DNA of 61,049 bases from Selenomonadaceae bacterium. GTDB lineage: Bacteria > Bacillota > Negativicutes > Selenomonadales > Selenomonadaceae. The stretch lies in assembly GCA_017444245.1 (NCBI GenBank), contig JAFSXD010000001.1:1-61049 (forward strand), in the 5' to 3' direction. The notes beneath the pieces were generated by a model. The model was not told where the DNA came from and made no database searches. It was given only the letters and a program-made list of their open reading frames with translations. Numbering within the stretch: position 1 is the stretch's first letter; every line of letters begins with the position of its first letter. Of the stretch, positions 7,536 to 56,049 are shown one piece after another. Made by a program: the position numbers and the translations under genes.

Positions 7536-9350
7536 TTATTCAAGCACAAAATTTTCATTCGCCGCGATAAATTTTTCTGCGTCCTTGAAGTTGGGAAAAT
7601 TTTTTTTAATCTTATCGAAGTCCCAATCCCACCACTTAACTTTCTGCAACGCGTCAATAATTTCCTGCGAAAAGCGATAATCAATAATCTGCGCGGGATT
7701 GCCGGCAACTATCGCGTAGGGCGGAACATCTTTTGTGACTACCGCGTTGTCCTCAATTATCGCGCCGTCGCCAATCACAAGCGGATTATCGGCGTCACTT
7801 GCAATTAAAGTTGCATCTGAATTTATTTTCACATCCGAGCCGATTAAAATTTTGTGCACTCCGTTTTGAATTTGAGTGCCTTCAAAATCATAGACGCTGA
7901 CAAAATTTTTTTCGGGCTTGCGGAAAAATTTTACTTTCACGTTGTCCAAAATTGAAGTGTAATTGCCGACGTGCATTTCCCCCAAAACATTTTTGCAACT
8001 GAACAAAATTTTTTTCGCGTAACTTTCTTTGCCAAGAGAAATTGCAACATTCCCGCCGACTAAAAAAATTCTTTGATGAACTGTTCGACTTTCGTCGCTA
8101 AATTCATTCCCTGCAATTTCGCCGTAAGCCATGCCTTCAGCAAAAAATTTTGGGAAATTTAAATTTGGAATTTGAAAAACTCTTCCGTCCAAAATTGCAT
8201 CTTGAGGAATTTGAAATGACTCAAGTATTTTCCGATGCTCATGAAAATTATTTCCCGCCATAACGACAGCTATTTCAAAGGAGGGCGGGTCTATAATTTT
8301 TCCGCCAAGCTTTTCGTAGAAAATAATTTCTCTTCCCTCAACAATCGCGTAGCCGACGATGTTTATAAAATCTTTTTCCTCAAACGGCTTGATGTAATTG
8401 TAAAGTTCATAGTTGAACGGATTCGTACTCCAAAGCAACGTCCTCTTTCCAAATTTCGATTTAATGGAAAGCGTTTCACTCAAGCCGCGTTTTTTCAAAA
8501 ATTCATTGGCAATTTTTACCATGTCGTCGGCAACTTGAAATTGCACTCTTCGTTGAAGATGATCTACAATTTCCAAGTAATCATCTCTGGAATTTACGTA
8601 CTCGCTGTAATTGATTAACTTAACATTATCGCAATCAGCAAATTCTTTTTCCAACAGAGGATTTATTTTTTTTCGTCTGGTCGCCTTGATTATCGAGGCT
8701 TTAGTTTCGTCATAAGCCGTTTCGATACCAAGCATGATAACCAGCAAAACTTTTTCGGGAATCAACGAACGGATTTTTTTGTAATTCTCTACAATTTCTT
8801 CCGGCTCAAGAGGTCCTTCGTATTCAAAGTTTTCACGGAAACGCCGTAGCATTTCGTAAGTATATTTCGCGTCGCAATACCACGCATCTTTTCCTGAAAC
8901 GTAGTCAGCCCACTTTTCTGAATCAGTCAAATCGTCCCAAGCTTTGAAAACTATACGAGCTCCGGTTTTTTTATTCCGATAAACATTCGCGTAAGTGTCA
9001 ACCAACGTGCTCAAGAAAATCACGTCGTAATTTCCGGAAAAAATTTCTGTTTCAAAACTTCTTGCGTCAATGAAAGGAAAATTTTTCGCCATGTCGTTTA
9101 TTTCTTCGGCGGGCAGGTAAGTTGATTCGATTATGTGCACGCTGTGACTTTGGGCGGAAATTAAAACTCCATGTTCGTTTACAAAATTTGTTTCTAAATC
9201 AACTTTGCCTAAGGATTGGAGAATTTGAAGTATTTGCAGAAGATCGCACGGACCTTTCATCAAAATTCGCGGTGCATTTTGCACAGTAATTTTTTCGGCG
9301 TCACTTGCTTGCGAAAAATATTTTTTAAGAGAAATCTCCTCAACCCAAAT
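7536..9350 (-). CDS. C-terminal fragment of a frameshifted multidomain glycan-modifying enzyme (unknown middle region plus left-handed beta-helix acetyltransferase)
   Basis: The frame continues directly from the C9 tract (..IWVEEISLKKYF..). The C-terminus GSDVKINSDATLIASDADNPLVIGDGAIIEDNAVVTKDVPPYAIVAGNPAQII is a hexapeptide-repeat acetyltransferase. The track ORF (to 9461) has a spurious N-terminus. Confidence 0.75.
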   Translation of the reverse strand: MWVEEISLKKYFSQASDAEKITVQNAPRILMKGPCDLLQILQILQSLGKVDLETNFVNEHGVLISAQSHSVHIIESTYLPAEEINDMAKNFPFIDARSFETEIFSGNYDVIFLSTLVDTYANVYRNKKTGARIVFKAWDDLTDSEKWADYVSGKDAWYCDAKYTYEMLRRFRENFEYEGPLEPEEIVENYKKIRSLIPEKVLLVIMLGIETAYDETKASIIKATRRKKINPLLEKEFADCDNVKLINYSEYVNSRDDYLEIVDHLQRRVQFQVADDMVKIANEFLKKRGLSETLSIKSKFGKRTLLWSTNPFNYELYNYIKPFEEKDFINIVGYAIVEGREIIFYEKLGGKIIDPPSFEIAVVMAGNNFHEHRKILESFQIPQDAILDGRVFQIPNLNFPKFFAEGMAYGEIAGNEFSDESRTVHQRIFLVGGNVAISLGKESYAKKILFSCKNVLGEMHVGNYTSILDNVKVKFFRKPEKNFVSVYDFEGTQIQNGVHKILIGSDVKINSDATLIASDADNPLVIGDGAIIEDNAVVTKDVPPYAIVAGNPAQIIDYRFSQEIIDALQKVKWWDWDFDKIKKNFPNFKDAEKFIAANENFVLE

Positions 9351-10234
9351 GGGGGGGGGTAGGAATTTAGTTGTGATGCGACTTCTCCTACAGTTGTAAT
9401 TTGTGGAAAATTTAATTTTGCGTAAATGAATTGTTCGACGCCCATGCCGAGCACGCGGCACGAAAATAAAAAATGTTGCAGACGATTTTCCACCGTGTCA
9501 AGGCAATAAAAACCGACTGCACCATAATCACCGAATTTGTCACGCACAAAAATCAATGCGCAATTATAGCGATCGTCTTCAACCAATTTTTCCAAATCAG
9601 ATTTTGAATCGCGGCGTTTCGTGAAGTTCAGCTGATTCGTTCGCGCAACCAACTCCGCAATGCGCTCAAGATTTTTTCTGCAGTCATGGGAAATTGCAAG
9701 CTGAATGTTGGCACTCTGTAAAAATTCTTCGTTAGACGCGGCGGATTTTTTTTCCGATTGCTTTTTCTCCAAAATTTTGTACCGGTTCAATCGTTCGTGT
9801 TTGGCGTCAGAAATTTTCAGCGAATCGGCCGCGCTATAAAGTTCGTCAAGATTTTTTGCGTCAAGCGTCATAATCTCCGGCAAATAAAATTTCGCCTCGC
9901 CCAAATTGCTTGAGTTGTCGTCGACGAACAAAACATTTTCTGCGCGAAGTCCCATATCGTCAAGCATGGACTTTATACGTTCGCCCTTAGGCGTCCAATC
10001 TATTGACGGAAAAACGAATAAATCCCAAATGTCCCACGCGATTAATTTTTCTTTGACGGGCTGAAAATCATTTTTTGAACAAATTGAATTGATAATGCCT
10101 GCGTCCGTTAATTTTCGTAGTGTTGAAAAATTTTTTTCAATCGGTGTAACGGGAATTTCTGAAGTTATCGTCCCCGCCCAAAATGTTTCGTCCAAATCCC
10201 AAATTACGAGCTTAACTTTTGTGATGTCAAACAT
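9260..10234 (-). CDS. N-terminal fragment: FkbH-like HAD-IIIC phosphatase domain
   Basis: Motifs seen: MFDITKVKLVIWDLDETFW (DxDxT), LFVDDN, RTNQLNFTKRR, DKFGDYGAVG and FLFSCRVLGMGVE. The last ~27 codons after the C9 tract are out-of-frame tail. Confidence 0.8.
   Translation of the reverse strand: MFDITKVKLVIWDLDETFWAGTITSEIPVTPIEKNFSTLRKLTDAGIINSICSKNDFQPVKEKLIAWDIWDLFVFPSIDWTPKGERIKSMLDDMGLRAENVLFVDDNSSNLGEAKFYLPEIMTLDAKNLDELYSAADSLKISDAKHERLNRYKILEKKQSEKKSAASNEEFLQSANIQLAISHDCRKNLERIAELVARTNQLNFTKRRDSKSDLEKLVEDDRYNCALIFVRDKFGDYGAVGFYCLDTVENRLQHFLFSCRVLGMGVEQFIYAKLNFPQITTVGEVASQLNSYPPPFGLRRFLLKNIFRKQVTPKKLLCKMHREF
9351..9359 (-). repeat. homopolymer C9 (minus strand) that splits the FkbH-HAD/acetyltransferase gene
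   Basis: There are nine G on the plus strand. The upstream frame reads ..SQLNSYPPP and the downstream frame ..PPPIWVEEISL. C10 or C7 would fuse the two frames. Confidence 0.9.
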
Positions 10235-10236
10235 TT

Positions 10237-10656
10237 TCAGTCCTCAAAAATTTCTAGTTCGCTGAAATAAATTTTAATTTCACGCGCGGCATTTTCGGGG
10301 CTGTCCGAAGCGTGAACGGCGTTTCTGGTGCTGCTCTCCGCGTAAAGTTTGCGTACCGTTCCTTCTGCGGCGTTGTCTGGATTCGTTGCACCGTGAATTT
10401 CGCGAACTCGTTTGATGACATTTTCCCCAGCCAAAACCAACGCCATAATCGGCGCACTTGTCATGAACTTTACAAGATCGTCGTAATACGCCCGCCCGAT
10501 GTGTTCGACGTAATGACTTGCGGCAATTTTTTCATCCATTTTCAAAATTTTTGCCGCGCAGATTTTAAAACCTTCCGCCTCGTACATTTTCAAAATATCG
10601 CCGCAATGACCCGCGCCAAATGCGTCCGGCTTTATCAATACCAAAGTTTTTTCCAC
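10237..10656 (-). CDS. ndk: nucleoside-diphosphate kinase
   Basis: Starts MEKTLVLIKPDAF and carries NAVHASDS (catalytic His). Confidence 0.9.
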   Translation of the reverse strand: MEKTLVLIKPDAFGAGHCGDILKMYEAEGFKICAAKILKMDEKIAASHYVEHIGRAYYDDLVKFMTSAPIMALVLAGENVIKRVREIHGATNPDNAAEGTVRKLYAESSTRNAVHASDSPENAAREIKIYFSELEIFED

Positions 10657-10681
10657 GTTAATTTCTCCTTAAAAAATTTTT

Positions 10682-10721
10682 CATTACGCATTGCGCGTTA
10701 CAAATTACACATTACGCATTG
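10682..10721. repeat. 7-nt-period boundary repeat (CATTRCG/xxTTACA)
   Basis: The units read cattacg cattgcg cgttaca aattaca cattacg cattg. The repeat overlaps the prfC stop codon. Confidence 0.75.
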
Positions 10722-12316
10722 TCAAACGGCGTTGCGTTCATCAAAAGTTTTGGATTATTGTCACCAATCCAGCCGAGCGACCACTCATTTTCGACAATCA
10801 GCACAGGATTTTCTTTTCTGTCCAAGACAAACATTCCGCGATCCGCGCCGCGCAGAGTTGCAGGCGTAACTTTGCTGTCGTCTTCGTATTTCAGCCAACG
10901 CGCAACTTCAAACGGCAACATCGTCAGCAAAATATCAACGTTGTATTCGGATTTCAAACGGTACTGCAAAACTTCAAATTGCAAAGTCCCAACCGTGCCG
11001 ACAATGTACGAATCCGTTCCCGCACCGACGGGATAAAAAAGTTGAATCGCGCCCTCCTGCGTCAACTGTTCGATACCCTTTGCAAACTGCTTGCGTTTCA
11101 TCGTGTCCTTTGCTTGAACGCGCGCAAATTTTTCCGGCGGGAAAATCGGAAAGTCTTCAAACTTAAACTTATGCGTGGCGTCCGTCAAAGTGTCGCCGAT
11201 TCCGAAAATTCCCGTGTCGAAAAGTCCTACAATGTCGCCGGGAAAAGCTTCTTCGATAATTTGACGCTCCTGCGCAAGAAATTGTTGAGGTTGCGAAAGT
11301 TTAACGAGTTTATTCGACGGCGCATGCCAAACGTTCATGTTTCGTTCAAATTTCCCTGAACAAATTCGTATGAAAGCTAATCTGTCGCGGTGCGCAGGAT
11401 TCATATTAGCTTGGATTTTGAAAACGAAGGCAGAAAATTTTTCGTCGGTGGGCTCAATAATTCCGTCGTCCGAAAGTCTTGGTGCAGGCGGCGGCGCAAG
11501 TCTCAAGTACTCTTCCAAAAAATTTTTCACGCCGAAATTTGTCATTGCCGAGCCAAAAAAAGTTGGCGTCAAATCCCCCGCGTTGATTTTGTCCAAATCG
11601 AATTTTTCTCCCGCCTCGTCCAGCAACATCAAATCATCTTGCAAGGCGTCAAAATTATTTTGCCCGATACGTTTAATAACTTCCGCGTCGTTCGGCGAAA
11701 AAATTTCTGAAATGCGTTCGGTCTGTCCATGCGAAGTGTCTTCGGCAAAAAGTTCAACCAAATTTTTTTCGCGGTCGTAAACGCCGAGATATTTTCCGTC
11801 CGTGCCGATTGGAAAATTCATCGGATAAGCGCGAATCCCCAAAACTTTTTCAACTTCGTCAAGCAAATCAAGCGGAACTTTTCCGTAGCGATCCAATTTG
11901 TTTATGAAAGTGAAAATTGGAATGCGCCGTTCACGACAAACCTTAAAAAGTTTTTTTGTCTGCGCCTCGACGCCCTTAGCAGCGTCCAAAACCATAACCG
12001 CGCTGTCGACAGCCATAAGCGTGCGGTAAGTGTCTTCGGAAAAATCCTGATGTCCCGGCGTGTCCAAAATATTTATTCGGCAACCCGCGTAATCGAATTG
12101 CAAAACTGAACTCGTTACGGAAATTCCGCGTTGCTTTTCAATTTCCATCCAATCAGAAACGGCGTGACGTTGCGCCTTGCGTGATTTTATTGACCCCGCA
12201 AGGTGTATTGCGCCGCCGTACAGCAAAAGTTTTTCGGTCAGCGTGGTTTTGCCTGCGTCGGGGTGTGAGATTATCGCGAACGTCCGCCGCTTAGCTATTT
12301 CTTCGGTAAATGACAA
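10712..12316 (-). CDS. prfC: peptide chain release factor 3
   Basis: RTFAIISHPDAGKTTLTEKLLLYGGAI and DTPGHQDF GTPase motifs; 534 aa. Confidence 0.95.
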   Translation of the reverse strand: MSFTEEIAKRRTFAIISHPDAGKTTLTEKLLLYGGAIHLAGSIKSRKAQRHAVSDWMEIEKQRGISVTSSVLQFDYAGCRINILDTPGHQDFSEDTYRTLMAVDSAVMVLDAAKGVEAQTKKLFKVCRERRIPIFTFINKLDRYGKVPLDLLDEVEKVLGIRAYPMNFPIGTDGKYLGVYDREKNLVELFAEDTSHGQTERISEIFSPNDAEVIKRIGQNNFDALQDDLMLLDEAGEKFDLDKINAGDLTPTFFGSAMTNFGVKNFLEEYLRLAPPPAPRLSDDGIIEPTDEKFSAFVFKIQANMNPAHRDRLAFIRICSGKFERNMNVWHAPSNKLVKLSQPQQFLAQERQIIEEAFPGDIVGLFDTGIFGIGDTLTDATHKFKFEDFPIFPPEKFARVQAKDTMKRKQFAKGIEQLTQEGAIQLFYPVGAGTDSYIVGTVGTLQFEVLQYRLKSEYNVDILLTMLPFEVARWLKYEDDSKVTPATLRGADRGMFVLDRKENPVLIVENEWSLGWIGDNNPKLLMNATPFDNA

Positions 12317-12340
12317 ATTTTTTCAAACCTCCTGCGCGGA

Positions 12341-12940
12341 TTAATTAAGCGTTATACCAAATTTTTGAATCAAGTCTTTGTGATTTTTGAGTTGCTCCAT
12401 GAACTCGGGCAAAATATTTTTCAAGTATGCAAGCTCCTGCGGATTTTCGGTAAGTTCAATACTTTTTGCGTAGCGGACATACGCAAGGAACGTTTCAAAA
12501 TCTTCTTGAGTATATTTTTCTGCTACGTCGTCGCCAAAATATTTTCGAAGATTTTCGCTGATAATGTAGCAGAAAGGTCCTCCATGCTGACTTTTAAAAA
12601 ACATAGAAATTTGCGAGTCAATGTAGATTGCATTTAATTTGTTGAACTGGTTTAAGCACAGTTGCACTACATTCAAATCACAAAATCGCGGAATTAAAAT
12701 ACTCTCCGTTTCATCTTTAAGAAATATTGTATTGTGCGAAACCGATCCGACTGTTGAAGCAAAAATTTCAGAATTTGCCAAAATATTGAGCTGTGCCTCA
12801 AGAGGAACCCTTTCAGGCTGTATTATGGAATAGCCCTTAGACTGAAAATAATTTGCCAGTCGTTCTTCTCCTATTTGTTTACCAAAACCGTGAAAAAAGT
12901 AGAACTTTTTTTCCGGCAGTGTCGAAAAATTTTTCTGCAT
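12341..12940 (-). CDS. C-terminal fragment of a frameshifted GT61/DUF563 glycosyltransferase
   Basis: EKKFYFFHGFGKQIGEERL..LNILANSEIFASTVGSVSHNTIFL is present. The same frame is open back to the G-tract (QKLLYTTEYAETIDRVRNFMQ..). Confidence 0.75.
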   Translation of the reverse strand: MQKNFSTLPEKKFYFFHGFGKQIGEERLANYFQSKGYSIIQPERVPLEAQLNILANSEIFASTVGSVSHNTIFLKDETESILIPRFCDLNVVQLCLNQFNKLNAIYIDSQISMFFKSQHGGPFCYIISENLRKYFGDDVAEKYTQEDFETFLAYVRYAKSIELTENPQELAYLKNILPEFMEQLKNHKDLIQKFGITLN

Positions 12941-13536
12941 AAAGTTTCGTACTCTGTCAATAGTTTCAGCATATTCGGTGGTGTAAAGCAGTTTCTGCCC
13001 CCCCCCCCCGCGTAGAAAAGCGACGGGTCAGGTAGAATCACGTTTTGAAATTTGGTTGCGTGTGTAATTATGTTTAATCTCGAAAGGTCTACTTCCAAAA
13101 CTTGAAGAAGTTTTACAAAATTGGGAATTATGTTCTGTCCCATTAAATTTACTGCCAGCTTACAAGTTGAAAAGTATCTTTTGTAAGGATCGCTAGTCAA
13201 AAACCACAATCTTTTTATGTGATCTGTCAGACAATGCCCCCAAACAGAATTAAAAGTTCCAAGAAAAATCACAGTTTCTGGACTAATTCGTAAATCTTCA
13301 TTTGGAGTGTAAACGTCGCCAATGCCTTCATGGACTGAAGTTCCTTCTACGAAATTTCCTTTGCCGTCAATGATGCCACCGAAACCATTTAATCCAAGAC
13401 GACCATCTAAATCTAAGTGTGGCAAAATTGTTCCATTCTCGATAATTCGGAAATGCAATTTTTTATCGGAGAAATGAGTTTCGTTTAGCTTGTCGCCAAA
13501 AAATTCTCTGTTATACAAACCGTCGTAGTTTACCAT
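12871..13536 (-). CDS. N-terminal fragment of the GT61/DUF563 glycosyltransferase
   Basis: FLGTFNSVWGHCLTDHIKRLWFL is a GT61-type GH..D...RL motif. The tail after the G12 tract is out of frame. Confidence 0.7.
   Translation of the reverse strand: MVNYDGLYNREFFGDKLNETHFSDKKLHFRIIENGTILPHLDLDGRLGLNGFGGIIDGKGNFVEGTSVHEGIGDVYTPNEDLRISPETVIFLGTFNSVWGHCLTDHIKRLWFLTSDPYKRYFSTCKLAVNLMGQNIIPNFVKLLQVLEVDLSRLNIITHATKFQNVILPDPSLFYAGGGGRNCFTPPNMLKLLTEYETLCRKIFRHCRKKSSTFFTVLVNK
12998..13009 (-). repeat. homopolymer G12 (minus strand) that splits the GT61 gene
   Basis: I counted twelve C on the plus strand. The upstream frame reads ..LFYAGGGG then goes out of frame. G13 or G10 would join it to QKLLYTTEY.. 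Confidence 0.9.
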
Positions 13537-13551
13537 AAAAATTTTTCCACC

Positions 13552-14466
13552 TTATTGAGTTATGATTTTGCCGACGAGTTCAGAAATATTTTTCAGCCGG
13601 CGACGTTGCAAATATTTTTCCAAGTCGGCGATTATTTTCATAATTACGTTTGGGTCGGCGAAATTTGCCGTACCGATTGCGACAGCAGATGCCCCCGCCA
13701 AAAAAAATTCCACAGCGTCCGCGCAACTGCGAATGCCACCCATGCCAATCACGGGAATTTTTACTGCTTGAGCAACTTGATAAACCATGCGAACCGCCAC
13801 AGGTTTCACCGAGCCGCCGGACAATCCGCCCGTAATATTTCCAAGCGTCGGTTTCCACGTCTCAATATTAATTTCCATGCCAATCAGCGTGTTTATCAGC
13901 GAAACGCAATCCGCCCCCGCGCCTTCCACAGCCAAAGCAATTTCCGCAACGTCCGTGACATTTGGGCTTAGTTTCACGATAACGGGCTTGTCTGTATTTT
14001 TTTTCGCCGACGCCGTCACTGATGCCGCCGCGTTCGGATTCGTCCCAAAAATAATTCCGCCGTCTTTCACGTTCGGACATGAAATATTTAATTCAATCGC
14101 CGCCACCCCGTCAACGTCCAAAAGTTTTGCAAGCTCGCCGTAATCTTCGACGCTTGAGCCGCTGATATTTACGATGACGTTCATGCCAAAATTTTTTATG
14201 CGCGGGAGAATTTCCGATAAAAATTTTTCCACGCCGGGATTTTCCAGCCCGATTGAATTTAACATTCCCGACGGCGTCTCGGCAATGCGCACGCCCTTAT
14301 TTCCGTTGCGCGGCTTCAGCGTCAAGCATTTTGTAACGACGCCGCCCATTTGTGCAAGGTCTACAAAATTTGCAAACTCTTCACCAAATCCAAACGTCCC
14401 CGACGCGGAAAGTATCGGCGTTTGCATTTTTATGCCGCAAATTTCTGTTTTTAAAAGTTCACTCAT
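13552..14466 (-). CDS. pyrD: dihydroorotate dehydrogenase, catalytic subunit (class 1B)
   Basis: ILSASGTFGFGEEF, NVIVNISGSS and ELNISCPNV motifs. I prefer the ATG at 14466 (AAGGGA RBS) over the track start at 14508. Confidence 0.9.
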   Translation of the reverse strand: MSELLKTEICGIKMQTPILSASGTFGFGEEFANFVDLAQMGGVVTKCLTLKPRNGNKGVRIAETPSGMLNSIGLENPGVEKFLSEILPRIKNFGMNVIVNISGSSVEDYGELAKLLDVDGVAAIELNISCPNVKDGGIIFGTNPNAAASVTASAKKNTDKPVIVKLSPNVTDVAEIALAVEGAGADCVSLINTLIGMEINIETWKPTLGNITGGLSGGSVKPVAVRMVYQVAQAVKIPVIGMGGIRSCADAVEFFLAGASAVAIGTANFADPNVIMKIIADLEKYLQRRRLKNISELVGKIITQ

Positions 14467-14545
14467 CAAAATTTCCCTTAAGCAATTATTTTTGTCACTA
14501 TTACCCAACGCATGAGCGTGACGCGAATGTTACGAACTTTTTTTA

Positions 14546-14581
14546 CTGACTAACTAGCGATCTGGCGATCTAACTAACTAA
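14546..14581. repeat. 8-nt-period boundary repeat (CTAACTAG CGATCTGG CGATCTAA CTAACTAA)
   Basis: It lies between the pyrD start and the flavoprotein stop, and overlaps that stop codon. Confidence 0.85.
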
Positions 14582-15221
14582 TTACGAGTTCACGCCCGAT
14601 TTTGTAAGCGTCATCAAGTTGCGTCTGCCAAAATTTTTTTCTGTACTCAATTTTATGCTGTTCGTCGAAAATCGAAGACTCGTACTTTGAATAATCTTTA
14701 AATTGAAGTGTATCGAAAGCCAAAAGTCTTTTTGGTTTAACTCCCAAAACATTTTCAGAAAATCTTTCGTACATTCCCGCCAAATGTTCCATGTTGAATT
14801 GTTCCCAATGATCTTTCGTCATGTTCATCGTGTAAAAAAATGCGCTTGGAAGTTTTTTAGGAAAGACCGTTGGAATTTCCGTGCTGTAAATGTAGTTGGA
14901 GAAAATCAGCCGCTCAATGAACGCAATCATTCCCGAAGATAAATTCATAAAATAAATTGGCGAGCCGAAAATTATCGCGTCGGCAAGTTTAATTTCTTCC
15001 AAAATCGGCGACAAATCATCTTTCATCGCGCAAGTGCCGTGCTCTTTACTTTTCAGCTTGCAATAAAAACAACTCGTGCAACCTTTAAAATTCAGCGCGT
15101 AAAGATTAATCGTCGTGACTTCCGCGCCCGCGTCCTGCGCACCGATCGCCGCACTCTTCAAAAGTTGCGCGGTGTTTCCGTTTTTGCGCGGACTGCCGTT
15201 AACCAAAATAATTTTTTTCAT
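14574..15221 (-). CDS. flavodoxin-fold NAD(P)H-dependent FMN reductase / iron-sulfur flavoprotein family
   Basis: Starts MKKIILVNGSPRKNGNT and has a CTSCFYC cysteine cluster. It is inserted between pyrK and pyrD. Confidence 0.7.
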   Translation of the reverse strand: MKKIILVNGSPRKNGNTAQLLKSAAIGAQDAGAEVTTINLYALNFKGCTSCFYCKLKSKEHGTCAMKDDLSPILEEIKLADAIIFGSPIYFMNLSSGMIAFIERLIFSNYIYSTEIPTVFPKKLPSAFFYTMNMTKDHWEQFNMEHLAGMYERFSENVLGVKPKRLLAFDTLQFKDYSKYESSIFDEQHKIEYRKKFWQTQLDDAYKIGRELVIS

Positions 15222-15248
15222 TCTAATTCTAAGCTCTCCAAAAAAATT

Positions 15249-16016
15249 TTACGTGTTGAAAATAAATTCCCTTGCGTCGAATACCGGACCGTCCTTGCAA
15301 ACTTTTTTCCGTCCGTTTATCGTGTCAATCGAACAACTCAAGCAAGCCCCGAGCCCGCACGCCATACGACGTTCAAAACAAATTTCACAGTGCAAACCGT
15401 TTGCGATTGCCTCAAGTGCCGTGCCGTACATCATGATATCCGGTCCGCAGGTGTAGACGGCTGAATATTTATCGGCGGACAAAATTTCCGGCAAATAATC
15501 CGTCGCAAAACCTTTTCGCCCGTAACGATAGCTACCGTCGTCCGTCGTCACAAAAATAATGTCAATCGAGGGCAAGTGACTAAATTCTTTTATCCAAAAC
15601 GTAACTTCGTCACGATTGCGCCCGCCAATTAAAATTTCAACTTCGCGCAATTTTTCAGCCACGCTCAAAAGCGGAGCAAGCCCCATGCCCCCGCCGACCA
15701 ACAAAACTTTACTGCTTGCGTTCATGCTGAACCCGTTGCCCAGCGGTGCCAAAAGATTCAACGAACTGCCCGCCTTCAACGTCGACAAAAATTCTGTGCC
15801 GCGTCCAACCACGCGATAAAAAATTTTCACGCCGTTAATGGTTGACGCAATTCCAAACGGTCGACGCAGTGTAAATTCCGAAGAGGGCAACTTTATTTGT
15901 ACAAACTGCCCCGCCTTCGCTGTCGCCGCAATTTCCGGCGCGTCCACTTCCAATTTGAAAACACTCGGCGCAACTTCTACATTGGATTTTATTTCGCTCT
16001 CAAAAAGTTTACTCAT
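15249..16016 (-). CDS. pyrK: dihydroorotate dehydrogenase electron-transfer subunit
   Basis: RRPFGIAS FAD-binding motif, GGGMGLAPL, and a C-terminal CGLGACLSC 2Fe-2S motif. Confidence 0.9.
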   Translation of the reverse strand: MSKLFESEIKSNVEVAPSVFKLEVDAPEIAATAKAGQFVQIKLPSSEFTLRRPFGIASTINGVKIFYRVVGRGTEFLSTLKAGSSLNLLAPLGNGFSMNASSKVLLVGGGMGLAPLLSVAEKLREVEILIGGRNRDEVTFWIKEFSHLPSIDIIFVTTDDGSYRYGRKGFATDYLPEILSADKYSAVYTCGPDIMMYGTALEAIANGLHCEICFERRMACGLGACLSCSIDTINGRKKVCKDGPVFDAREFIFNT

Positions 16017-16056
16017 TTAATTTCGCCCCCTTCTTCCTGTGCCAGTCGTTGAAAAA

Positions 16057-16743
16057 TTATTCTGCGCGAACGAAAATTAAAACGTTGCCCTGCGTTGAGA
16101 ATTTCCATTTGTAATTTGAAATTGCCTTGAAGAACGCGAAGGAGCAATCCTCTTTCAAATCGTCGTGAAGTACGACAGCCAAGACTTTCACTCTGGAAAG
16201 CCACTCGTCAACATTGTTCGCGCTGAAGACTTCTTTTTCTGCGCCGTTGATGTCAATTTTAAGCAAGTCAATTTTTTCCGCGCCGGACTCCGCCAAAATT
16301 TTTGAAAGCGTCGTGGATTTAATTGCGTTTGAATCATCTGCGCCGGTTTCAACTACCGTGTAACCACTTTCGCCGTTTTCGTTTTCTTCCACGCGCAGAG
16401 AAGTTTCCCAACTCCAAACTGCCGAATTTGCAAGTTTGATGTTGTCGTAGAAAATCGTGTTGTATTGCAAAAATTTGAAATTGGTTTTGTCAGGCTCAAT
16501 GGCGAAAATCTGCGCGTCGGGATATTCGTTTGCAAAAAAGATTGTGCTGTAGCCGATATTCGCGCCGCAATCGACAATCAATTTCGGCTGAAAATTTTCC
16601 AATTCCAATTTGTACTTGCCGTAATCAAAAATTTCTTGTCCAACGGTTTCGTCAGTCGTGCCGCCGCGATAAGAGAACGGCAAGCCCATAACGTCGCTAA
16701 TTTGCAAATCGAGACTACGAATAAAATCAACAGTGTTTGACAT
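16057..16743 (-). CDS. FkbM-family SAM-dependent methyltransferase
   Basis: VDCGANIGYSTIFFANEYPDAQIFAIEPDKTNF is present. Confidence 0.8.
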   Translation of the reverse strand: MSNTVDFIRSLDLQISDVMGLPFSYRGGTTDETVGQEIFDYGKYKLELENFQPKLIVDCGANIGYSTIFFANEYPDAQIFAIEPDKTNFKFLQYNTIFYDNIKLANSAVWSWETSLRVEENENGESGYTVVETGADDSNAIKSTTLSKILAESGAEKIDLLKIDINGAEKEVFSANNVDEWLSRVKVLAVVLHDDLKEDCSFAFFKAISNYKWKFSTQGNVLIFVRAE

Positions 16744-16773
16744 GAAATAAAACCTCCGTTTGTTAGTGATTAG

Positions 16774-16808
16774 CTTAAAGCTTGAAGCTTGAAGCTTAAA
16801 GCTTCTAG
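16774..16808. repeat. 7-nt-period boundary repeat (CTTRAAG)x4 plus CTTCTAG
   Basis: The units read cttaaag cttgaag cttgaag cttaaag cttctag. It lies between the FkbM start and the carB stop. Confidence 0.9.
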
Positions 16809-16812
16809 CGAC

Positions 16813-19800
16813 TTAACTCAACGCATCGCCGCCGCCAACATAATCTTGAATCGCCAGCGAATAAACAAGCCGCCTGTCACGCATGAAAGTCAGCATGCGT
16901 AAAACTTCCCAAGCCGTGTCCAAACTCGTAAGGCAGGGAATGCCATGTTCAACGGTCGCGCGTCTGATTCTGAAACCGTCACGCATGACATGTTGTCCCG
17001 GTGCTTGAGTGTTTACGACAAGATGAATTTTTCCATTTTTGATTCGCTGAATTATATCCACGCTGCGCTGATGAACTTTGCCGACAACTTCTGCGTCAAT
17101 TCCAATTTTCTGCAACGCATTGGCAGTTCCCTGCGTCGCCGCGATTTTGAATCCCAAATCGTAAAACGCCCGCGCCAACTGTTTGACCTCTTCCTTGTCT
17201 TTGTCAGCAACGGTGAAAAGTATGCAACCTTCAACGGGAATGTTCATGCCCGCGCCGGTTATCGCCTTGTACAACGCCCGCGCGTAATGGTAGTCAATTC
17301 CCATGACTTCGCCCGTCGATTTCATTTCCGGTCCAAGAGAAATGTCAACGTCTTGCATTTTCGCAAAAGAAAATACGGGTGCTTTAACCGCGACGTAGGC
17401 TTTCGGTTCGATAAGTCCGGAGTAAAATCCCTGTTGCTTGAGAGTTTTTCCCAACGCCACTTGAGTTGCAACGTTTACCATTTTTATGTTGGTAACTTTG
17501 CTAAGGAAAGGAACGGTACGGCTGGAACGCGGATTAACTTCAATGACGTAAACAATTCCGTCCGCCACGACGTATTGAATGTTCAGCAGACCTTTCACTT
17601 GAAGAGCAAGTGCCAATCGTTTCGTGTAATCCGTGATGATGTAAGTAATTTTTGAAGTCAAAGTTTGCGGCGGATAAACTGCAATGCTGTCGCCGCTGTG
17701 AACGCCCGCCCGTTCGACGTGTTCCATAATTCCCGGTATCACGACATCAACGCCGTCCGATATTGCGTCGACTTCAACTTCCGTACCTTGAACATAGCGG
17801 TCAACAAGTACGGGATGATCCGGCGTCACTTTAACCGCGCGGCTCATGTAATCGCGCAATTCGTTTTCGTTGTAGACAATTTCCATTGCCCGCCCGCCTA
17901 AAACGTAACTGGGACGAACCATGACGGGATAACCTATTTCCTCCGCGCCTTTAATTGCCTCGTCAAGATTAGTGACGCTAATTCCTTTTGGACGCGGTAT
18001 TCCCACTTCCGTTAAAACTTCGTCGAAACGTTCGCGATCTTCTGCGCGGTCGATGTCGTCAACGGAAGTGCCGAAAACTTTCACGCCGGCTTCTTGAAGA
18101 CTTGCCGCAAGATTTATCGCCGTCTGTCCGCCAAATTGAACGATGACTCCTTCAGGTTTTTCTTTGTCGATAATATTCAAAACGTCTTCGGTAGTCAACG
18201 GCTCGAAATAAAGTCTGTCTGAAATGTCAAAGTCCGTTGAAACAGTTTCTGGATTGTTGTTGATGATGATAGCTTCAATTCCCATTTCGCGCAGTGCCCA
18301 AACGGAATGAACGGAGCAGTAGTCGAACTCCACGCCTTGACCAATGCGAATTGGACCGGAGCCGAGCACGATAACTTTTTTGTTGATTGTGACTTCGACT
18401 TCATCTTCTTCAGCGTGATAGGTTGAGTAGTAGTAAGGCGTGACTGCCTCGAACTCCGCCGCGCAGGTGTCAACCATTTTGTAGAAGGGATAAATTTTAT
18501 TTTCAATGCGCAGTTGCCGAACTTCCTTTTCGGTCTTGCCCGTCAATTCGGCGATTGATTTATCGCAGAGTCCCAAAATTTTTGCGTTGCGGACGTTGCG
18601 CAAATTTAAATCGTCACGAGACAACTTAACTTCAAAGTCCGCAATATTTTTTATCTTTTGAATGAACCAGCGATCTACTTTCGTTATGTCATGAATTTCG
18701 TCGACTGTTGCAATGTTACGGCGGAGAGCTTCGGCAATTACAAAAATTCTTTCGTCATTGATTCTGGCAAGACGCTGTTTAATTTTTTCGTCGCTCCACT
18801 CGTCAAGCTGTTCAAAGTGCAAACGATGTACGCCGATTTCCAAACTGCGGATTGCTTTCAAGAGTGCGCCTTCAAAAGTGCGGTCGATGCTCATGACTTC
18901 GCCCGTCGCTTTCATCTGCGTGCTTAAAGTTTTGTCCGCGTAAACAAATTTGTCGAACGGGAAACGCGGAATTTTCACAACGCAATAATCCAGCGCGGGC
19001 TCAAAACATGCTTTCGTTTTGTGCGTGACGGCGTTCGTAATTTCGTCCAGCGTGTAACCAATCGCAATTTTTGAACTGACTTTCGCAATGGGATAGCCCG
19101 TCGCCTTCGACGCCAACGCGGAAGAACGACTCACGCGCGGATTAACTTCAATGACGTAATAATTTTGACTGTTCGGATCAAGCGCGAATTGAACGTTGCA
19201 ACCGCCTTCAATTTTCAGTGCGCGAATAATTTTCAAACTGGCTGAACGCAAAAGTTGATATTCCAAATCCGTCAACGTTTGACTTGGCGCAACAACGATT
19301 GAATCGCCCGTGTGGACGCCGACGGGATCAAAATTTTCCATGTTGCAAACGGTTATGCAGTTGTCGTTGGAATCGCGCATGACTTCGTATTCAATTTCTT
19401 TCCAGCCGGCGACGCTGCGTTCAATCAAAACTTGCCCAATCATGGAATATTTCAAGCCGCGAATGACAATTTCAATTAATTCTTCTTCGTTTTCCGCGAT
19501 GCCGCCGCCTGTTCCGCCGAGTGTGTACGCGGGACGAACAATCAGCGGATAACCGATTTGTTTTGCAAAATCAACGGCACTGTGAATATCTTCAACGATT
19601 GTGGATTCGGGAATGGGCTCACCGATTTCAGTCATGGTTTCCTTGAAAAATTCGCGGTCTTCCGCTTTTTTTATTGCGGTTAAGGAAGTTCCCAAAAGTT
19701 CAACGTGATTTTTTTCCAGCACGCCTTTTTCGGAAAGTTTGACTGCAAGATTTAAACCTGCCTGTCCGCCGAGCGTCGCAAGCAAACCGTCGGGGCGTTC

Positions 19801-20046
19801 CTTTTCGATTATCGCCGTCAAAAATTCCAAAGTCAACGGCTCGATGTAAACTCTGTCAGCAATGTTCGTGTCCGTCATAATCGTTGCCGGATTGGAATTG
19901 ACGAGGACGACTTCAAGCCCTTCCTCTTTCAACGCGCGGCAAGCTTGAGACCCCGCGTAGTCAAACTCCGCCGCTTGCCCAATTATGATTGGTCCTGAAC
20001 CTATTACTAATACTTTCCTAAGATTTTTTTTCTTCGGCAAAGTCAA
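16813..20046 (-). CDS. carB: carbamoyl-phosphate synthase large subunit
   Basis: 1077 aa with duplicated ATP-grasp halves and an MGS-like C-terminus. It has a TTG start with a GGAGG RBS. Confidence 0.97.
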
Positions 20047-41984: not shown

Positions 41985-44900
41985 TTACTCCCAATGACGA
42001 TTGCCGGTGTTGACGGATTTAATATTCTGCCAGCCGCCGTTGCCGTCTGAAAGTCTGAAGTTGGTCTCTGTGCCGACACCCGTCACGACAACTCCGCCGC
42101 CGTCCTTAAGCACAACGTCGATTCTGCCGCTGGAAATAGCCGTCTTATCATTGTCGATGTCGTCCAAAGTTACGTCATAGAGCCAGACGAGGTCTTCAGT
42201 GCCAACAGTGGTAATCGTATCCGTGCTGGAACGGTAGACGCCTTCACTGGTGGTGTAGCCGTAGGACTTGAAGAAGAAGAAGGTCTCTTCGCCGCCGTTG
42301 CTACCAACGAGTGAATTGGTTTCGCCGCCGCCGCCCCACAGGCTCGTGGAAGTGTTGCTACCGCCGGACAAGATCGTATTGTTGGACGCGCCGCCCGCCA
42401 ATGTCAAATTGCCGTTCTGGACTGAAGACGCGTTGACCATTCCGATGCCGCCGTAGGAGACACTGTCAAGGCGTGAATCGTTCAGCCAAATGTTGACGTT
42501 GGACGTATCGGAGGAAACATTCAGAACGTCGCGCGGACGGCTGTTGCTTACGCCGCCATAGTAAATGTCGGTTTCGCCGTCATATGTGAAGGTGTTGACG
42601 CTGTTGCTGACACCAAACTTGATGTTGTAAATCTTGCTGTCGTTCGCAAATTGCGCTCTTACAGCTTTGTGATCGCTCGTCGTAAAGTCGCCGCTGATAA
42701 CAACAGTTTCGTCGCCCGAGAGGGAAACTTCCAATCTGGTTGAAGTCGCGCTGACGCCTTTGTAATTGTCACGATCGCCCAAGTACAGCAAGTCTGCCGA
42801 AGAAACGTTGACGTCTTGATCTTGACCCTTGTAGAAGTTGAATCCGGTAATCGTAGTTCTGCCGCTGCTGTAGGTTACGCCGTTAGAACTGCCGAAGTAG
42901 AAGTTGTTGCCGGATTTTGTAGTATCGTTGCCACCGGAAACGAGCACGTCATTGCCGCCGCCGACTGCAACATACTTGCGAGAACCTGCGTCTGCACTGC
43001 CGGAAACCGTAATGCTTTCGTTAGCACTTGAACCCCAAACAGTAGCTCTGGCTTCGCTTGCGACGTTGAGTTTCGTGATGTTGGAAAGTTTCGCAGAACC
43101 GAGCGTGACTTCAAACGCAGTGGTTACGGAATCAGTTACGTAAATGCCGCCGGCTTTTTCGCCTTTGTAGTAAGCACTCAAATCAGCATTCGTGCTAACC
43201 GTTGCCGTTGCATCAGGAGCGATGAAGGATACAGGCGTTCCGTTGACCAAGAATCTGTACGCGCCGTCAACCGTCGACAAACCGTTAAAGTTGATTGAAG
43301 CGTTGCCGCTGGAGGCTACAACAGCATCTCTCAATTTGAAGGAAAGGCTGTCAATGCTGTCCGCGAGCAGGACGTTTGCGCCGCTGTCCGCATCAAAGCC
43401 GCTCTTCCAACCGTAGACATCAGTCTTGCCGCTTGTGAGGGTAATCGTTGCGCCGCGTTGTCCCGATCCGCTGTCCGCACTTGCAAGCGAAACTGTATCA
43501 GTACCTGCGCCCGGATTAATCGTATCGTTAGGTCCTGCAACAATCGTGTCGTTCAAGGAAGAACCGACGACTGTATTTTCTGCGCCGCCGTTGATGCTGG
43601 AAATCATGAGCGCGCCGCCGTTGATTGTAATTTCGCTGGCGTCAAGCAGACTGCCATAGTTGCCCGCCCAGATAAGATTCTTTCTGTCGCCGACGTTCGC
43701 ATTTGTAATAATCGCCTTCGTTGCCGTAGCCGGATCGTAATCTGAACCGCCAACCGTAATTGTTGAGCCGTTAGCTATCGCAATCTTGTTGCCGTCAAGC
43801 TGAACGTTATCCGGAGTAAGTCTTGCACTGGTTGAAAGTTTCGTCGCAACGATAACGTCTCTGTCATCAAAGCTGTAGTCCGCAATTTCAAAAGCGTTCG
43901 TGTCATAGAAGTAGTCGATACCTGCGCCGCCTTCGATGTAATCTGAACCGGAACCGTAGATCGTATCAGAGCCCGAGCCGCCCAAAATGGTTGCCGCGCC
44001 GCCTCTGTTGTAAATGTACGAGCCATTGTCGCCAGCTTTGACGTAGTTGTTACCTGTCGCCTTAGGTCCAATCAAGATTGAAACATTTCTTGCGCTGGTG
44101 CTGCCAAGAATCGTGTGGTTGGTTGCGAATGCGGCAATATCGGAATCAGTATTCATACCGACAGCAATAAGGGTGTTCGGGCTACCGGTTGCGTCGATAA
44201 CCGCAGTGCGAATCGTGGAAACTCCCGTGCGCAGACCTTCAAGATATTCAACGTTAATCGGGTTGCTGATGTAGGACTGCAAGGTTATGTTGCGCGGGAA
44301 TGTGCCGTCAGCTGCACCAAGCGGTTCGTCGCCGTAAATGTTGACGCCCGTTCCTTGAGCAACAGTTTCAGGAGAATCAACCGTTGCACTTGCATAACCG
44401 GCAACTGTTCCATATGTCCCATCGAAAGCTTGCGTGGTTTCGTTATAAATGTTGTAGAAGTCGTGGAAAGCCTCAACCGTCGTGTTGCCGCCGTTCAAGC
44501 TGCTTGCCAACTGATTAACCAAGCTGTCGCGGTCGATACGGATTTGAGCAACAACAGAGTCTTCAGCAGTGACATTGCCGATGCTGTCAACATACAAGTA
44601 ACCGATACTGTCATTGACTTCAACCGTTGCACTTGAACCGACGCTGTAAACGCCCGCGCCAACCGTAATTGTTGAGTTCTTCGCAATGCCGCCGGTAATT
44701 GTGACATTCGGTTTTGCACTGCCGGATTTGCTTACGTACATCTGAATTGCGGATGCCGTTGAATCCAACACGCCGTCGCTACCGCCGTTCATGGTTACGC
44801 CAACGTCATTAATCGCCATAGCAACCGTATCTGTGGACGCCGCCATAGCTGAATCGTAAGTGAAGCCCGCCGCAAAGACGCTGTCGCTCGCAGTCTTGAC

Positions 44901-47276: not shown

Positions 47277-47654
47277 GACGCACTCCACCTCCTTAAAACA
47301 TTTACAAAAAACTTTTCGCCGTTGAGGCGAGTGCGGGCTTTTTGACAATGCGTAGAAGTTGAACATACGCATTCCTAATCTTAGGGACGCCGCCCGATAG
47401 CGTTCATTAACGACGCTTGCGCTCTCCGCGAAGGAAGCTGAACTCGTCGATTCAAAAAATTTCTTACCCCTCCTTCTTGCGGATACGCACTGCGCCAAAT
47501 ATTTCATCCGACACCGCAAACCACGAAGTCGGCAGTAGATTAGAAATGGAACTCAAAGAAAGAGGATGAGTCCGCGACCAAGCTTTTGGCGAGTGATCAA
47601 TTCGCCGCCAGGTCAACACGTCGCCCGAGACCTCCTTGTCTCAATCGCGGCTAT

Positions 47655-47834: not shown

Positions 47835-48521
47835 CTACCCCTTACTTTCTAAATTTTTTATCTGCCAATCGATTGGAGTTTCGCCGATTGACGACAAAAA
47901 ATTATTCACGCGTGAAAAAGGTTTACTGCCGAAAAATCCTCCGCTTGCAGAAAGTGGGCTTGGGTGTGCAGATTCTACGATAAAATGTCTTGGGTTGGTA
48001 ATCATAATTTTTTTTGCGCGCGCAGGTCTGCCCCAAAGGACAAATGCAATCGGGCGTTCGCGTTCGTTGAGTAGCTCAATAATTCTGTCCGTGAAAATTT
48101 CCCAGCCTTGTCCGCTGTGGGAGTTCGCTTGATGTGCGCGGACAGTTAAAACCGCGTTCAAAAGTAAAACGCCTTGATCCGCCCAAGATTTTAAGTAGCC
48201 GTTATCCGGAATGGCGCAACCCAAATCAGAATTTAATTCCTTAAAAATATTTCGCAATGACGGCGGCGGTTGAACTCCTTCTTTGACGGAAAAGCTAAGC
48301 CCGTGCGCTTGTCCTTCTTCGTGGTAGGGGTCTTGTCCCAGAATGACAACTTTCGTGTCGGCGTAACTCGTGAAGTGCAAAGCGTTGAAAATATCGTACA
48401 TATCCGGGAAAATTTTTCGCGTGCGGTATTCATGAATTAAAAATTGCCGCAACCTTTGGTAGTACGGTTTTTCAAGTTCGGCGTCCAAAAAATTTGCCCA
48501 ATCGTTTCTAAAAATTTGCAT
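47835..48521 (-). CDS. ung: uracil-DNA glycosylase
   Basis: [10 protein letters not shown] and HPSPLSA motifs. The ATG at 48521 follows a GAGGGAA RBS. Confidence 0.92.
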
Positions 48522-48606
48522 GGATTCCCTCAAACAAAAAAGTTGCCGAAAATTTTCAGCGTCAACTTTCGGCAACTCATTACAGCATGATTTCAATGAA
48601 AAAATT

Positions 48607-49572
48607 TTACACGAGGACACTGGCAAGGCGGACAAGTTCAGGGTCAAGCGGTTTTCTGTTGTTGACGGAGTCGAAGAGATTAATGCTGACAACTTTTCCT
48701 TCGTCGAAACCGAACACGACATCAGAAACGCCGGAAATTAATGCGAGTGCCGCACGTTCGCCGAGCATTGAAGCTTTCATACGATCTTCCATAGTTGGGG
48801 AACCGCCGCGTTGAATGTGTCCAAGAATCGAAACGCGCGTATCAATGCCGGTTTTTTCTTGCACAACATTTTTCAAGCCAACGCCGGAGCATGCGCCTTC
48901 AGCGACGACGATAATGCTGTAGCGACGACCTTTTTGGTAAGATTCGACAATTTCACGACAAATTTCGTCCAAATCGTACTTGACTTCGGGAACGATGATA
49001 TATTCCGCGCCACCTGCAATACCCGCCGTCATTGCGAGCCAGCCGGAAGTGTGACCCATGACTTCAACAATCATGATGCGACGATGAGCGGAGGCAGTAT
49101 CGCGCAGTTTGTTAATCGCGTCAACTGCAGTGTTTGCCGCCGTGTCACAACCTATGGTATAATCTGTTCCCCAAACGTCATTGTCGATTGTGCCGGGAAG
49201 TCCGACGATGGGAATGCCGCCCATTTTCGAGAGCAACGAGCCGCCGGTTAATGAACCGTCACCGCCGATGATGACAAGACCTTCTATGCCATGTTTTTGC
49301 AAATTGTTGAGACCTTTACGGCGTCCTTCTTCGGTTTTAAATTCTTTGCAGCGTGCAGTTCCCAAAAATGTGCCGCCGCGTTGAATCAAGTCGCTGACAC
49401 TGCGGGCATTGAGCTCAACAATTTCGTCGGCAAGCATGCCCTTGTAGCCGTTGTAAATGCCGAAAACTTTAACGCCTTCGTAGAGTGCCGTTCTGACTAC
49501 AGCACGTGCCGCCGCGTTCATGCCCGGACTGTCGCCGCCGGATGTCATTACAGCTATTGCTCCTGTTATCAT
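48607..49572 (-). CDS. pfkA: ATP-dependent 6-phosphofructokinase
   Basis: [22 protein letters not shown] and PGTIDND motifs. The start at 49572 follows a GGGAGG RBS. Confidence 0.93.
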
Positions 49573-54278: not shown

Positions 54279-55961
54279 TCATGCCAAAACTTTTTTCAAG
54301 CCGTCAATGTATTCTTCCGTCGACGGCAAATAGATGTGTTGCCTGCTCTCAGCTACAGGTTCGGCAATTTCCGCAATAAGGTTGTATGCAAATTGCGGGC
54401 GATCTTTGGATGCGTACATGTCCTTCAAGGTATCGCCGTCCAACGTCTTACTAAGTTTATCGGCTATCGTGTCAGCTTCCGTTTTGTTAAGAATAAAATC
54501 AACTGAAACTGTCTGAAATTCATCTTCCAAAATCTTGCACATTTTCTTGCTGTCATCTTCGATAATTTCATCGGTTACAGCTTTTGAAACTTTGCTTGCC
54601 GCAGTGCTCGATAACCAAGCAGCAATTAACATTCCTACTGGTCCAAAGGGAGCACCCAACATCGCGCCGCCAATTCCGCCTGCGACTCCTGCGCCAGAGT
54701 TCACAACATTTTTGAAAAGTTGAGACGCCGAAATTCTGCCGCGAAGAATATTTATCACGTCGCCCGCTGACATAATCGCAACCGTTGCAATTCCCGTGAC
54801 AGCATTCCCGCGCAGTAACTTAGACGCACTTTTCATTGCCGCCGCCCCGTAAATACTCGTGCCTTCTCTGAAAGCATTCACCAAATGTGCTGACATCTTC
54901 GGACCCATAGCTTTAACGAGTGCATCGGACGCAGGAATAAGCATTGTGTTGAAGCCCGCCTTCGTAATTTGTCCCGCTACAATCGAACCTGCCCATGCCA
55001 TGCCGCCGACTTGCAAGCCCGCTTTAACCGAATTTTCCAAAGCAACTTCAAAAGATTCACCGTTCCAAATGCAAACCGCAAAATTTATCGCCGCAGAAAT
55101 TCCGCCACTGTACGCGCCAATTTTTATTCCGTCTATCGCGTCATAAGTCAATGATTCGATTGTTCCCGCCTTCGCAATATTTTTTGCCTGCTCGTAAGTC
55201 ACATTGCCTTTGCGGATAATGTCTTCAGCTTTTTTGACGCCGCGAATTTGTCCTCTATCAATTCGACTTTGCATTGCTCTAACCGCGTCGTCGTACTTAT
55301 CGGCGGGAACTTCAATTTGCATTGGCGAACCGTCACGATTGTAATAGCGAAATTCTCCGTTGTGGAAACATTCTTGAACACACTTTGAGCCGGTGGCACA
55401 GTACTTGCTTTGAATGTTCGCGCCGTTTACGAGTCTGTCCGCACCGTTTTTAGCGTTGTCGTCGCCGACAATGTGTGCGTCTTTGCCTGTCATTCTGTCG
55501 TACAAGTCATTGGCGCGTTCTGCGGCAAAACCATGCCCCTTTGAACCGTGAAATTTTTCTTCAAAGTAAACCTTTTCTGTACCAACAAAAGCACCTTGTG
55601 CAAGTCCTGTATTTTTTGCGCCGCGTGAAGGTTCATTATTTGAAAAATGAAACCCTTCCGCACTTTCTTCTTCCTCTTCAAGATCAACAAAATAGCCTTC
55701 TTCGCCGAACCTGCTATCTACGAGTCTCTTCAAAGTTTTCACTGCCTCGTATTCGTCAGGTCCATCCGCCGCGATAGTAATTTCCGTGCCTTTAGTCAAG
55801 CCCATGCTCATAATCATGAGAATACTTTTCGCGTCAACTCTTTTGCCTTTCGCTTTAATCCAAACTTTTGATTTGAACTTGGACGCAGTCTGCACGAACA
55901 CCGACGCGGGGCGCGCATGAATACCGGTTTTGTTTTCGATAGTAGTTGTAAGCTCAAACAT
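54279..55961 (-). CDS. HPr (PTS phosphocarrier) domain fused to a ~470-aa domain of unknown function with a Gly/Ala-rich membrane-active-looking C-terminal half
   Basis: The N-terminal 88 aa align to HPr: KTGIHARPASVFVQTASKF (His15), VDAKSILMIMSMGLTKG (Ser46), EITIAADGPDE. Next comes KGHGFAAERANDLYDRMTG..GDDNAKNGADRLVNGANIQSKYC, followed by GGISAAINF.., AGLQVGGMAWAGSIVAG.. and GAGVAGGIGGAMLGAPFGPVG. Confidence 0.8.
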   Translation of the reverse strand: MFELTTTIENKTGIHARPASVFVQTASKFKSKVWIKAKGKRVDAKSILMIMSMGLTKGTEITIAADGPDEYEAVKTLKRLVDSRFGEEGYFVDLEEEEESAEGFHFSNNEPSRGAKNTGLAQGAFVGTEKVYFEEKFHGSKGHGFAAERANDLYDRMTGKDAHIVGDDNAKNGADRLVNGANIQSKYCATGSKCVQECFHNGEFRYYNRDGSPMQIEVPADKYDDAVRAMQSRIDRGQIRGVKKAEDIIRKGNVTYEQAKNIAKAGTIESLTYDAIDGIKIGAYSGGISAAINFAVCIWNGESFEVALENSVKAGLQVGGMAWAGSIVAGQITKAGFNTMLIPASDALVKAMGPKMSAHLVNAFREGTSIYGAAAMKSASKLLRGNAVTGIATVAIMSAGDVINILRGRISASQLFKNVVNSGAGVAGGIGGAMLGAPFGPVGMLIAAWLSSTAASKVSKAVTDEIIEDDSKKMCKILEDEFQTVSVDFILNKTEADTIADKLSKTLDGDTLKDMYASKDRPQFAYNLIAEIAEPVAESRQHIYLPSTEEYIDGLKKVLA

Positions 55962-56019: not shown

Positions 56020-56049
56020 ATTCTACCCCCCCCCTCAAAGATTTGTCAA
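56020..56049 (-). promoter_or_regulatory. promoter of the HPr-fusion gene with a G9 tract in the spacer
   Basis: On the minus strand: TTGACA (56049-56044), aatctttga, G9, then TAGAAT (56025-56020). The spacer is 18 nt. A 58-nt leader ends in AAGGAGG and the ATG at 55961. Confidence 0.65.
56026..56034 (-). repeat. homopolymer G9 (minus strand) inside the promoter spacer
   Basis: I counted nine C on the plus strand (56026-56034). Confidence 0.95.

Follow-up and report, generated by a model that had tools for sequence, protein, structure and literature searches.

Is a glycosyltransferase gene that an assembled Selenomonadaceae genome presents as two overlapping reading frames broken, wrongly assembled, or switched off for the time being? 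The question is raised by a run of 12 G within a GT61/DUF563 gene that lies in a contiguous stretch of 61,049 nucleotides, referred to here as the window; the features of this gene and of two further G/C tracts are collected in Table 1. Read on the minus strand, the run at 13009-12998 is c-GGGGGGGGGGGG-c, in the context ...TTCTACGC-GGGGGGGGGGGG-CAGAAACTG.... The N-terminal ORF (...GHCLTDHIKRLW...LFYAGGGG) continues beyond the tract out of frame to its stop, and the C-terminal frame begins PVAFLRGGGGQKLLYTTEYAETIDRVRNFMQKNF.... The preliminary description had proposed that the run splits the gene and that the C-terminal frame is open from the tract. Both points were borne out: the arrangement of the ORFs and a Pfam match across the junction locate the frameshift precisely at the tract, and the open stretch of the C-terminal frame starts slightly upstream of it. 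Changing the tract length in silico gave a single ORF of 398 aa for G13 and of 397 aa for G10, the two lengths that had been predicted to restore the enzyme, whereas G11 and G12 led to early stops. G12 is the sole lesion in the gene, and both halves are free of other stops or indels.

Table 1. Coordinates of the GT61 gene, its tract and the companion tracts in the window.
Feature	Position	Strand	Remarks
GT61 (PF04577) glycosyltransferase gene	12341..13536	-	Complete, split over two frames in the assembly
G12 homopolymer, proposed hypermutable switch	12998..13009	- (coding strand)	G12 OFF; G13 or G10 ON
OFF-state ORF, 221 aa (180 native + 41 out-of-frame residues)	12871..13536	-	Without C-terminal domain
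C-terminal reading frame	12341..13027	-	Open from 18 nt upstream of the tract to the stop; intact
Shine-Dalgarno-like AAGGTGG	13547..13553	-	10 nt upstream of ATG 13536; overlaps pyrD stop codon
C9 tract, proposed companion switch in FkbH-like/acetyltransferase gene (10234..7536)	9351..9359	- (coding strand)	C9 OFF; C10 or C7 ON
Promoter-like TTGACA-18 nt-TAGAAT	56020..56049	-	11/12 consensus matches; spacer holds G9 (56034-56026)

We consider it likely that the tract is a simple-sequence contingency locus that acts by slipped-strand mispairing and was caught in its OFF state. The G run would gain or lose bases at replication; at G10 or G13 the ribosome would read the complete enzyme, and at G11 or G12 it would run into an early stop. 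With G12 the 221-aa fragment would leave the enzyme off, so that the assembled genome would be a snapshot of the OFF state, and within the population, some cells would carry one additional sugar on a glycan and others would lack it. Slippage is the presumed mechanism in this strain, and its rate and reversibility are presumed likewise. It is reasonable to suppose that the GT61 activity is located at the surface and has a glycan as its acceptor, i.e., that it concerns a surface glycan; the gene itself is found among housekeeping genes and not in a glycan cluster.

The repaired protein matches the Pfam GT61 domain from aa 99 to 278, a region that spans the junction, and scores 35.6 bits where the cut-off is 27. 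Some 150 full-length homologues of ~395 aa, which carry PF04577, could be aligned end to end, and the AlphaFold2 model built on this family alignment was confident (pLDDT 88.5, pTM 0.87). The family profile, when searched against PDB sequences, returned nothing useful, leaving fold comparison alone as informative: all 16 Foldseek matches in the PDB with E ≤ 0.001 were to the GT61 enzyme POMGNT2 (E 1e-5, probability 1.0, TMq 0.37-0.43). The modelled fold resembles solved GT61 enzymes, and the predicted product would be a two-domain GT-B glycosyltransferase that adds one sugar.

According to the same model, the glycines encoded by the tract (G177-G180) make up a turn that connects strands 173-176 and 182-185 and in which the local pLDDT is lower. 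The tract segment is also the most indel-rich one in the family alignment, with inserts of up to ~20 aa. These three properties suggest that the protein should be able to accommodate an extra glycine or the loss of one, in keeping with G10 as well as G13 being ON lengths; as modelled, the tract glycines occupy a surface turn that is tolerant of insertions and deletions. Most of the residues that are invariant in the family (K210 to Y353) are located beyond the tract. The 221-aa OFF product is very probably inactive, since it lacks the C-terminal domain that bears most of these residues.

The GT61 gene is tightly packed between its neighbors. Its ATG at 13536 is located 15 nt past the pyrD stop and its own stop codon 24 nt ahead of the prfC start, and no promoter-like or terminator-like site in 12200-14700 stood out against shuffled controls. 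Co-transcription of the gene with pyrD and prfC seems likely. Given this tight placement, early termination of translation in the OFF state might reduce the expression of prfC and ndk, although such polarity is speculation.

Long G/C runs are rare in this DNA. The window has a G+C content of 44.6%. Only two of its G/C runs are 6 nt long, the lengths 7 and 8 are absent, and the three longer runs measure 9, 9, and 12. The three runs of at least 9 compare with 0.13 expected from independent bases or 0.04 from a first-order Markov model, i.e., such runs are ~25-75 times over-represented; for runs of at least 12, the corresponding expectations are 0.0015 and 0.0003. Codon preference does not explain four successive GGG codons, since GGG is the rarest Gly codon in the housekeeping genes of the window and accounts for only 10% of Gly codons there. 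All three long runs lie at positions where a change in length would alter expression, namely in the GT61 ORF, in the FkbH ORF, and in a promoter spacer.

The consensus length of a contig is error-prone at long G runs, and 12 G is the length at which Illumina accuracy falls. The tract might have been miscalled, in which case its true length would be G13, G10 or another in-frame length, the gene would be ON, and the OFF state would be a consensus artefact. The run is long enough for length errors, the exact strain is represented by a single assembly, and metagenome contigs of relatives differ by one base at such tracts, so that an error is possible in principle. However, homopolymer indel errors are not general in this contig, since among its 33 A/T runs of at least 8 all those situated well inside long ORFs read in frame (18/18). 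The same total length of 12 was also obtained in two independent runs of a related strain, and in relatives, the alleles G8 and G9 were each seen in several assemblies that are independent of one another. A miscall is unlikely in our estimate, and a wrong length would change the stated phase only, with all features of a contingency locus remaining in place. Besides the tract genes, the only suspicious ORF overlap in the window is found at 47835-49623; we rejected it as a further frameshift, as it arises from the over-extended ORF of a UDG-family gene that follows pfk.

The second of the three long runs is the C9 tract. The preliminary description had placed another OFF gene ~3 kb away from the GT61 gene, past prfC and ndk, and this assignment stands, since FkbH-like (HAD-IIIC) homologues of ~608 aa span the C9 site. 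As assembled, C9 is out of frame, and C10 or C7 fuses the FkbH ORF with an ORF ending in a hexapeptide acetyltransferase to give 899 or 898 aa. The fusion is unusual, because most of the ~608-aa homologues are without the acetyltransferase part. ndk and prfC are located between the FkbH-acetyltransferase and GT61 genes. Combinatorial variation by the two genes is a reasonable expectation, on the assumption that they act on the same or on co-displayed glycans.

The third run, G9, is located within the promoter-like site ~65 nt upstream of gene 55961..54279, which encodes a 560-aa protein with an N-terminal PTS HPr domain. Judged from its position, this tract is a candidate for a transcriptional phase switch that would act through spacer length, and a G9 within the spacer is the usual layout of such a switch. 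The minus strand at 56094-58269, immediately upstream of both the promoter tract and the gene for the HPr fusion, carries four tandem paralogous ORFs of 112-119 aa (MAMTKAEKHQCE...AGWQIAENFAN). The one that was scanned (56094-56432) is without a Pfam match, as is an ORF of 1844 aa at 41985-47519 on the minus strand.

Glycan-type genes in the region 7536-20046 comprise the FkbH-acetyltransferase gene, the GT61 gene and an FkbM methyltransferase gene (16057-16743). They stand singly among ndk, prfC, pyrD, pyrK, and carB and do not form a cluster. The neighborhoods of GT61 paralogues are likewise made up of various housekeeping genes, among which GT8, LCP-family, and nucleotidyl-transferase genes appear now and then. 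We looked for an LPS-cluster context around these paralogues and did not find one, and a flagellin-glycosylation context was dropped since no flagellar genes are present in the neighborhoods.

If the tract is a switch, its length should vary in relatives. A metagenome scan with the single repaired protein recovered no relative, and a rescan with the family alignment succeeded. The homologues place the window among rumen-type Selenomonadaceae. The closest relatives found were only two Logan contigs (L065 and L066, 92-93% nt identity), which read G10-T-G at the tract site and, having the same total length as G12, are also out of frame. No ON allele of the window's own orthologue was seen. Neither the G13 nor the G10 version of the repaired protein has an exact match in a collection of 15 billion proteins, so that an ON allele of the exact orthologue is not on record in that collection.

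Both phases were found in a sister species (83% nt identity), which shares the gene order FkbM-(amylase)-pyrK-pyrD-GT61-prfC. There, contig L067 carries G9 and a 400-aa ORF and is ON, whereas L068, from the same project, carries G8 and a 194-aa ORF and is OFF; the two contigs are 99.4% identical and the tract is their sole gap. Homologues at 50-56% aa identity have G9 (L070, L071, and L007, likewise adjoining prfC) or G8 (L069) at the same position. Altogether, tracts of G8-G10 occupy the codon position of the window's tract in L065-L071 and L007, and they do so even in homologues with only 50-75% aa identity. The G run is the best-conserved block in the DNA alignment of the tract stretch, and synonymous divergence between the window and L067 is saturated (dS ~2). 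The repeat thus appears to have been kept by selection and not by chance or codon usage.

Length polymorphism was also detected at a different site, around aa 132, in a second species with a 61%-identity homologue. Four contigs with G8 are OFF with split ORFs, and three contigs with G9 are ON with a 395-aa ORF; these seven contigs are 98-100% identical. One contig with G10 is OFF, and it was grouped with the others by similar, non-identical tract flanks without being aligned. Tract lengths are therefore G9/G8 in the sister species and G8/G9/G10 in the second species, and the window's species shows G12 and G10-T-G, both OFF. That the length differences of relatives are in the DNA speaks against recoding at the RNA level, i.e., polymerase slippage or ribosomal frameshifting on G12 that would leave expression lowered and not off. 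Long homopolymers are known sites of transcriptional slippage, but documented slippage occurs mostly at A/T runs. We regard recoding as highly improbable as the explanation of the split gene, and it may coexist with switching at the DNA level.

A gene that was inactivated by the frameshift and is now decaying, with the tract being incidental, would look similar in some respects: the tracts of the window and of its nearest relative have equal total length and leave the frame shifted in both, and we did not find an ON allele in the window's orthologue. The part downstream of the tract argues otherwise. Although it is out of frame in both the window and L065, and would be untranslated in a dead gene, the two sequences differ there by 3 non-synonymous and 11 synonymous changes (omega 0.066, binomial p 4.8e-6). 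This value indicates that the correct frame of the stretch was being translated during much of the period after the window and L065 diverged, a pattern expected of a toggling gene and not of a dead one. Purifying selection acts on both gene halves. Moreover, the gene carries one lesion only, it retains all residues that are invariant in the family alignment, and the tract has been kept at its site across species despite saturated synonymous sites. Decay has very little probability on this evidence, and a reversible switch accounts better for the preserved downstream half.

The two halves of the gene differ in their divergence from L065. The N-terminal part has a dS of 0.23 and a dN of 0.057, and the C-terminal part a dS of 0.09 and a dN of 0.006. 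At 13360-13430 (residues ~36-60), this 92%-identical relative resembles the allele of the sister species. The alignment suggests recombination or diversifying selection in the N-terminal domain of GT61.

The tract in the window is one of many in this gene family. A G/C run of at least 8 is present inside the GT61 gene at 14 of 37 Selenomonad genome loci, and five of these 14 are shifted exactly at the tract. Tract density is 0.31 per kb in the GT61 gene and 0.019 per kb in the flanks (16-fold, p 1.8e-9), in a set of loci that were chosen for containing GT61 genes and are in part redundant. Even the tracts in the flanks all lie inside further, often tandem, GT61 paralogues (7/7). Metagenome contigs provided more tract-bearing GT61 cases, most of them shifted. 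When all loci are taken together (1.04 Mb), GT61-homologous DNA makes up 17% of the bases and contains 51 of the 62 G/C runs of at least 8. The GT61 tracts represent 44 distinct genes and fall at four recurrent positions: ~aa 50; ~aa 77 (poly-C, 'YTPPP'); ~aa 132 (poly-G); and ~aa 176 (poly-G), the last being the site used in the window. Long G/C runs were thus not randomly spread over the window or the ~1 Mb of related loci, which had been named as the case that would count against a switch. Taken together, the conserved site, the ON and OFF alleles in the sister species, the enrichment in GT61 genes, and the purifying selection lend strong comparative support to the phase variation that the preliminary description had proposed.

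On balance, we lean toward a broader proposal, in which the principal 'phasome' of rumen Selenomonadaceae, and of certain other gut bacteria, would consist of GT61 paralogues with poly-G and poly-C tracts. Dozens of family members, frequently several in one genome and arranged in tandem, would have gained such tracts at the four recurrent positions, which are loops, and they occur in ON as well as OFF states. Phage or protozoal predation, and not host immunity, would be the likely selective agent. 

Several GT61 loci show additional features. Tandem arrays of two or three GT61 genes are present in L018, L020, L021, L024, and L138, and a separate poly-C tract is usually found at the 'YTPPP' site of each tandem copy. 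Many GT61 paralogues at these loci have a C-terminal extension of ~150 aa with faint similarity to ChW repeats (PF07538). In the Selenomonad-type loci, the only G/C run of at least 8 outside GT61 genes is a G9 run at 12715-12723 of L069, an unlabelled metagenome contig. It falls within the part for the signal peptide (...LLLLTGGGV...) of a small ORF, ~110 aa long, that resembles those of secreted proteins or lipoproteins, and it is out of frame as assembled. Beyond the Selenomonads, distant GT61 homologues with long tracts of up to C15 occur in L056, L117, and L118 (Rhodocyclaceae-like), L057 (Treponema), L052 (Bacteroidales), and L055 (Muribaculaceae), and the flanks of these six contain several further G/C runs of 8-13. 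Long tracts in such distant homologues and their flanks suggest that other gut taxa may commonly have contingency loci of this kind.

Studies of homopolymer phase variation have so far dealt almost exclusively with host-adapted pathogens. In the present case, the device would operate in an uncultured rumen-type Selenomonad and mark a whole glycosyltransferase family, and we regard this family-wide pattern as a more interesting lead than the single locus. If the proposed switch is real, annotation pipelines that call such genes pseudogenes or split ORFs misread them. Tract length would then be a simple marker of strain-level glycan heterogeneity in the rumen that can be read from metagenomes, and GT61 ON/OFF patterns could be tested against phage pressure. 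It would also represent variation of glycans based on simple sequence repeats (SSRs) in commensal diderm Firmicutes, a group for which we found no report of a contingency locus. We came across no relevant paper in a literature search that combined phase variation with Selenomonas, Negativicutes, the rumen, GT61 or DUF563, and the Quinella genome paper mentions neither homopolymers nor phase variation. The switching mechanism itself is textbook knowledge; it is the link between SSRs and Selenomonadaceae, Negativicutes, rumen bacteria or GT61/DUF563 for which we found no report.

Among known systems, one may come close in the enzyme as well as in the device. The cipA gene (Cj0685c) of Campylobacter jejuni presumably carries a DUF563/GT61 domain, in which case phase variation of a GT61 enzyme would already be documented in another phylum. 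Helicobacter, another genus with tract-bearing glycosyltransferase genes, is not known to have canonical mismatch repair. In C. jejuni, cipA is a known phase-variable gene (PMC5135748), and in Campylobacter poly-G tracts of at least 8 mediate switching, with 9G and 10G as the commonest lengths (PMC6321876). The glycan loci of C. jejuni, e.g., wlaN/Cj1139c (a beta-1,3-galactosyltransferase), Cj1295, the maf genes, and cipA, resemble the locus in the window in having an intragenic G/C homopolymer of 8-13 nt. They also share the ON/OFF switching by frameshift, the many tract-bearing glycan-modifying paralogues, and tract lengths that vary between near-identical isolates (PMC6321876, PMC5135748). 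However, C. jejuni is an epsilonproteobacterium with 30% G+C, whereas the host of the window is a diderm Firmicute with 45% G+C and its gene is a lone GT61 between pyrD and prfC.

In Neisseria gonorrhoeae, the pilin galactosyltransferase gene pgtA and the lgt genes likewise carry poly-G in a glycosyltransferase ORF and switch one sugar addition (PMC2193922), but these enzymes belong to another glycosyltransferase family and their acceptor, pilin or LOS, is known. The LPS genes of Helicobacter pylori and H. canadensis are similar in that glycosyltransferase genes contain poly-C/G tracts and populations differ in ON/OFF state (PMC1599737, PMC2823697), and differ in enzyme family and taxon. The closest structural counterpart is eukaryotic: POMGNT2 (6xi2, 7e9l) belongs to the same Pfam family and is the best structural match, but at a sequence identity of 10-13% and a TM-score of 0.41-0.43 its donor and acceptor are not transferable to the enzyme in the window.
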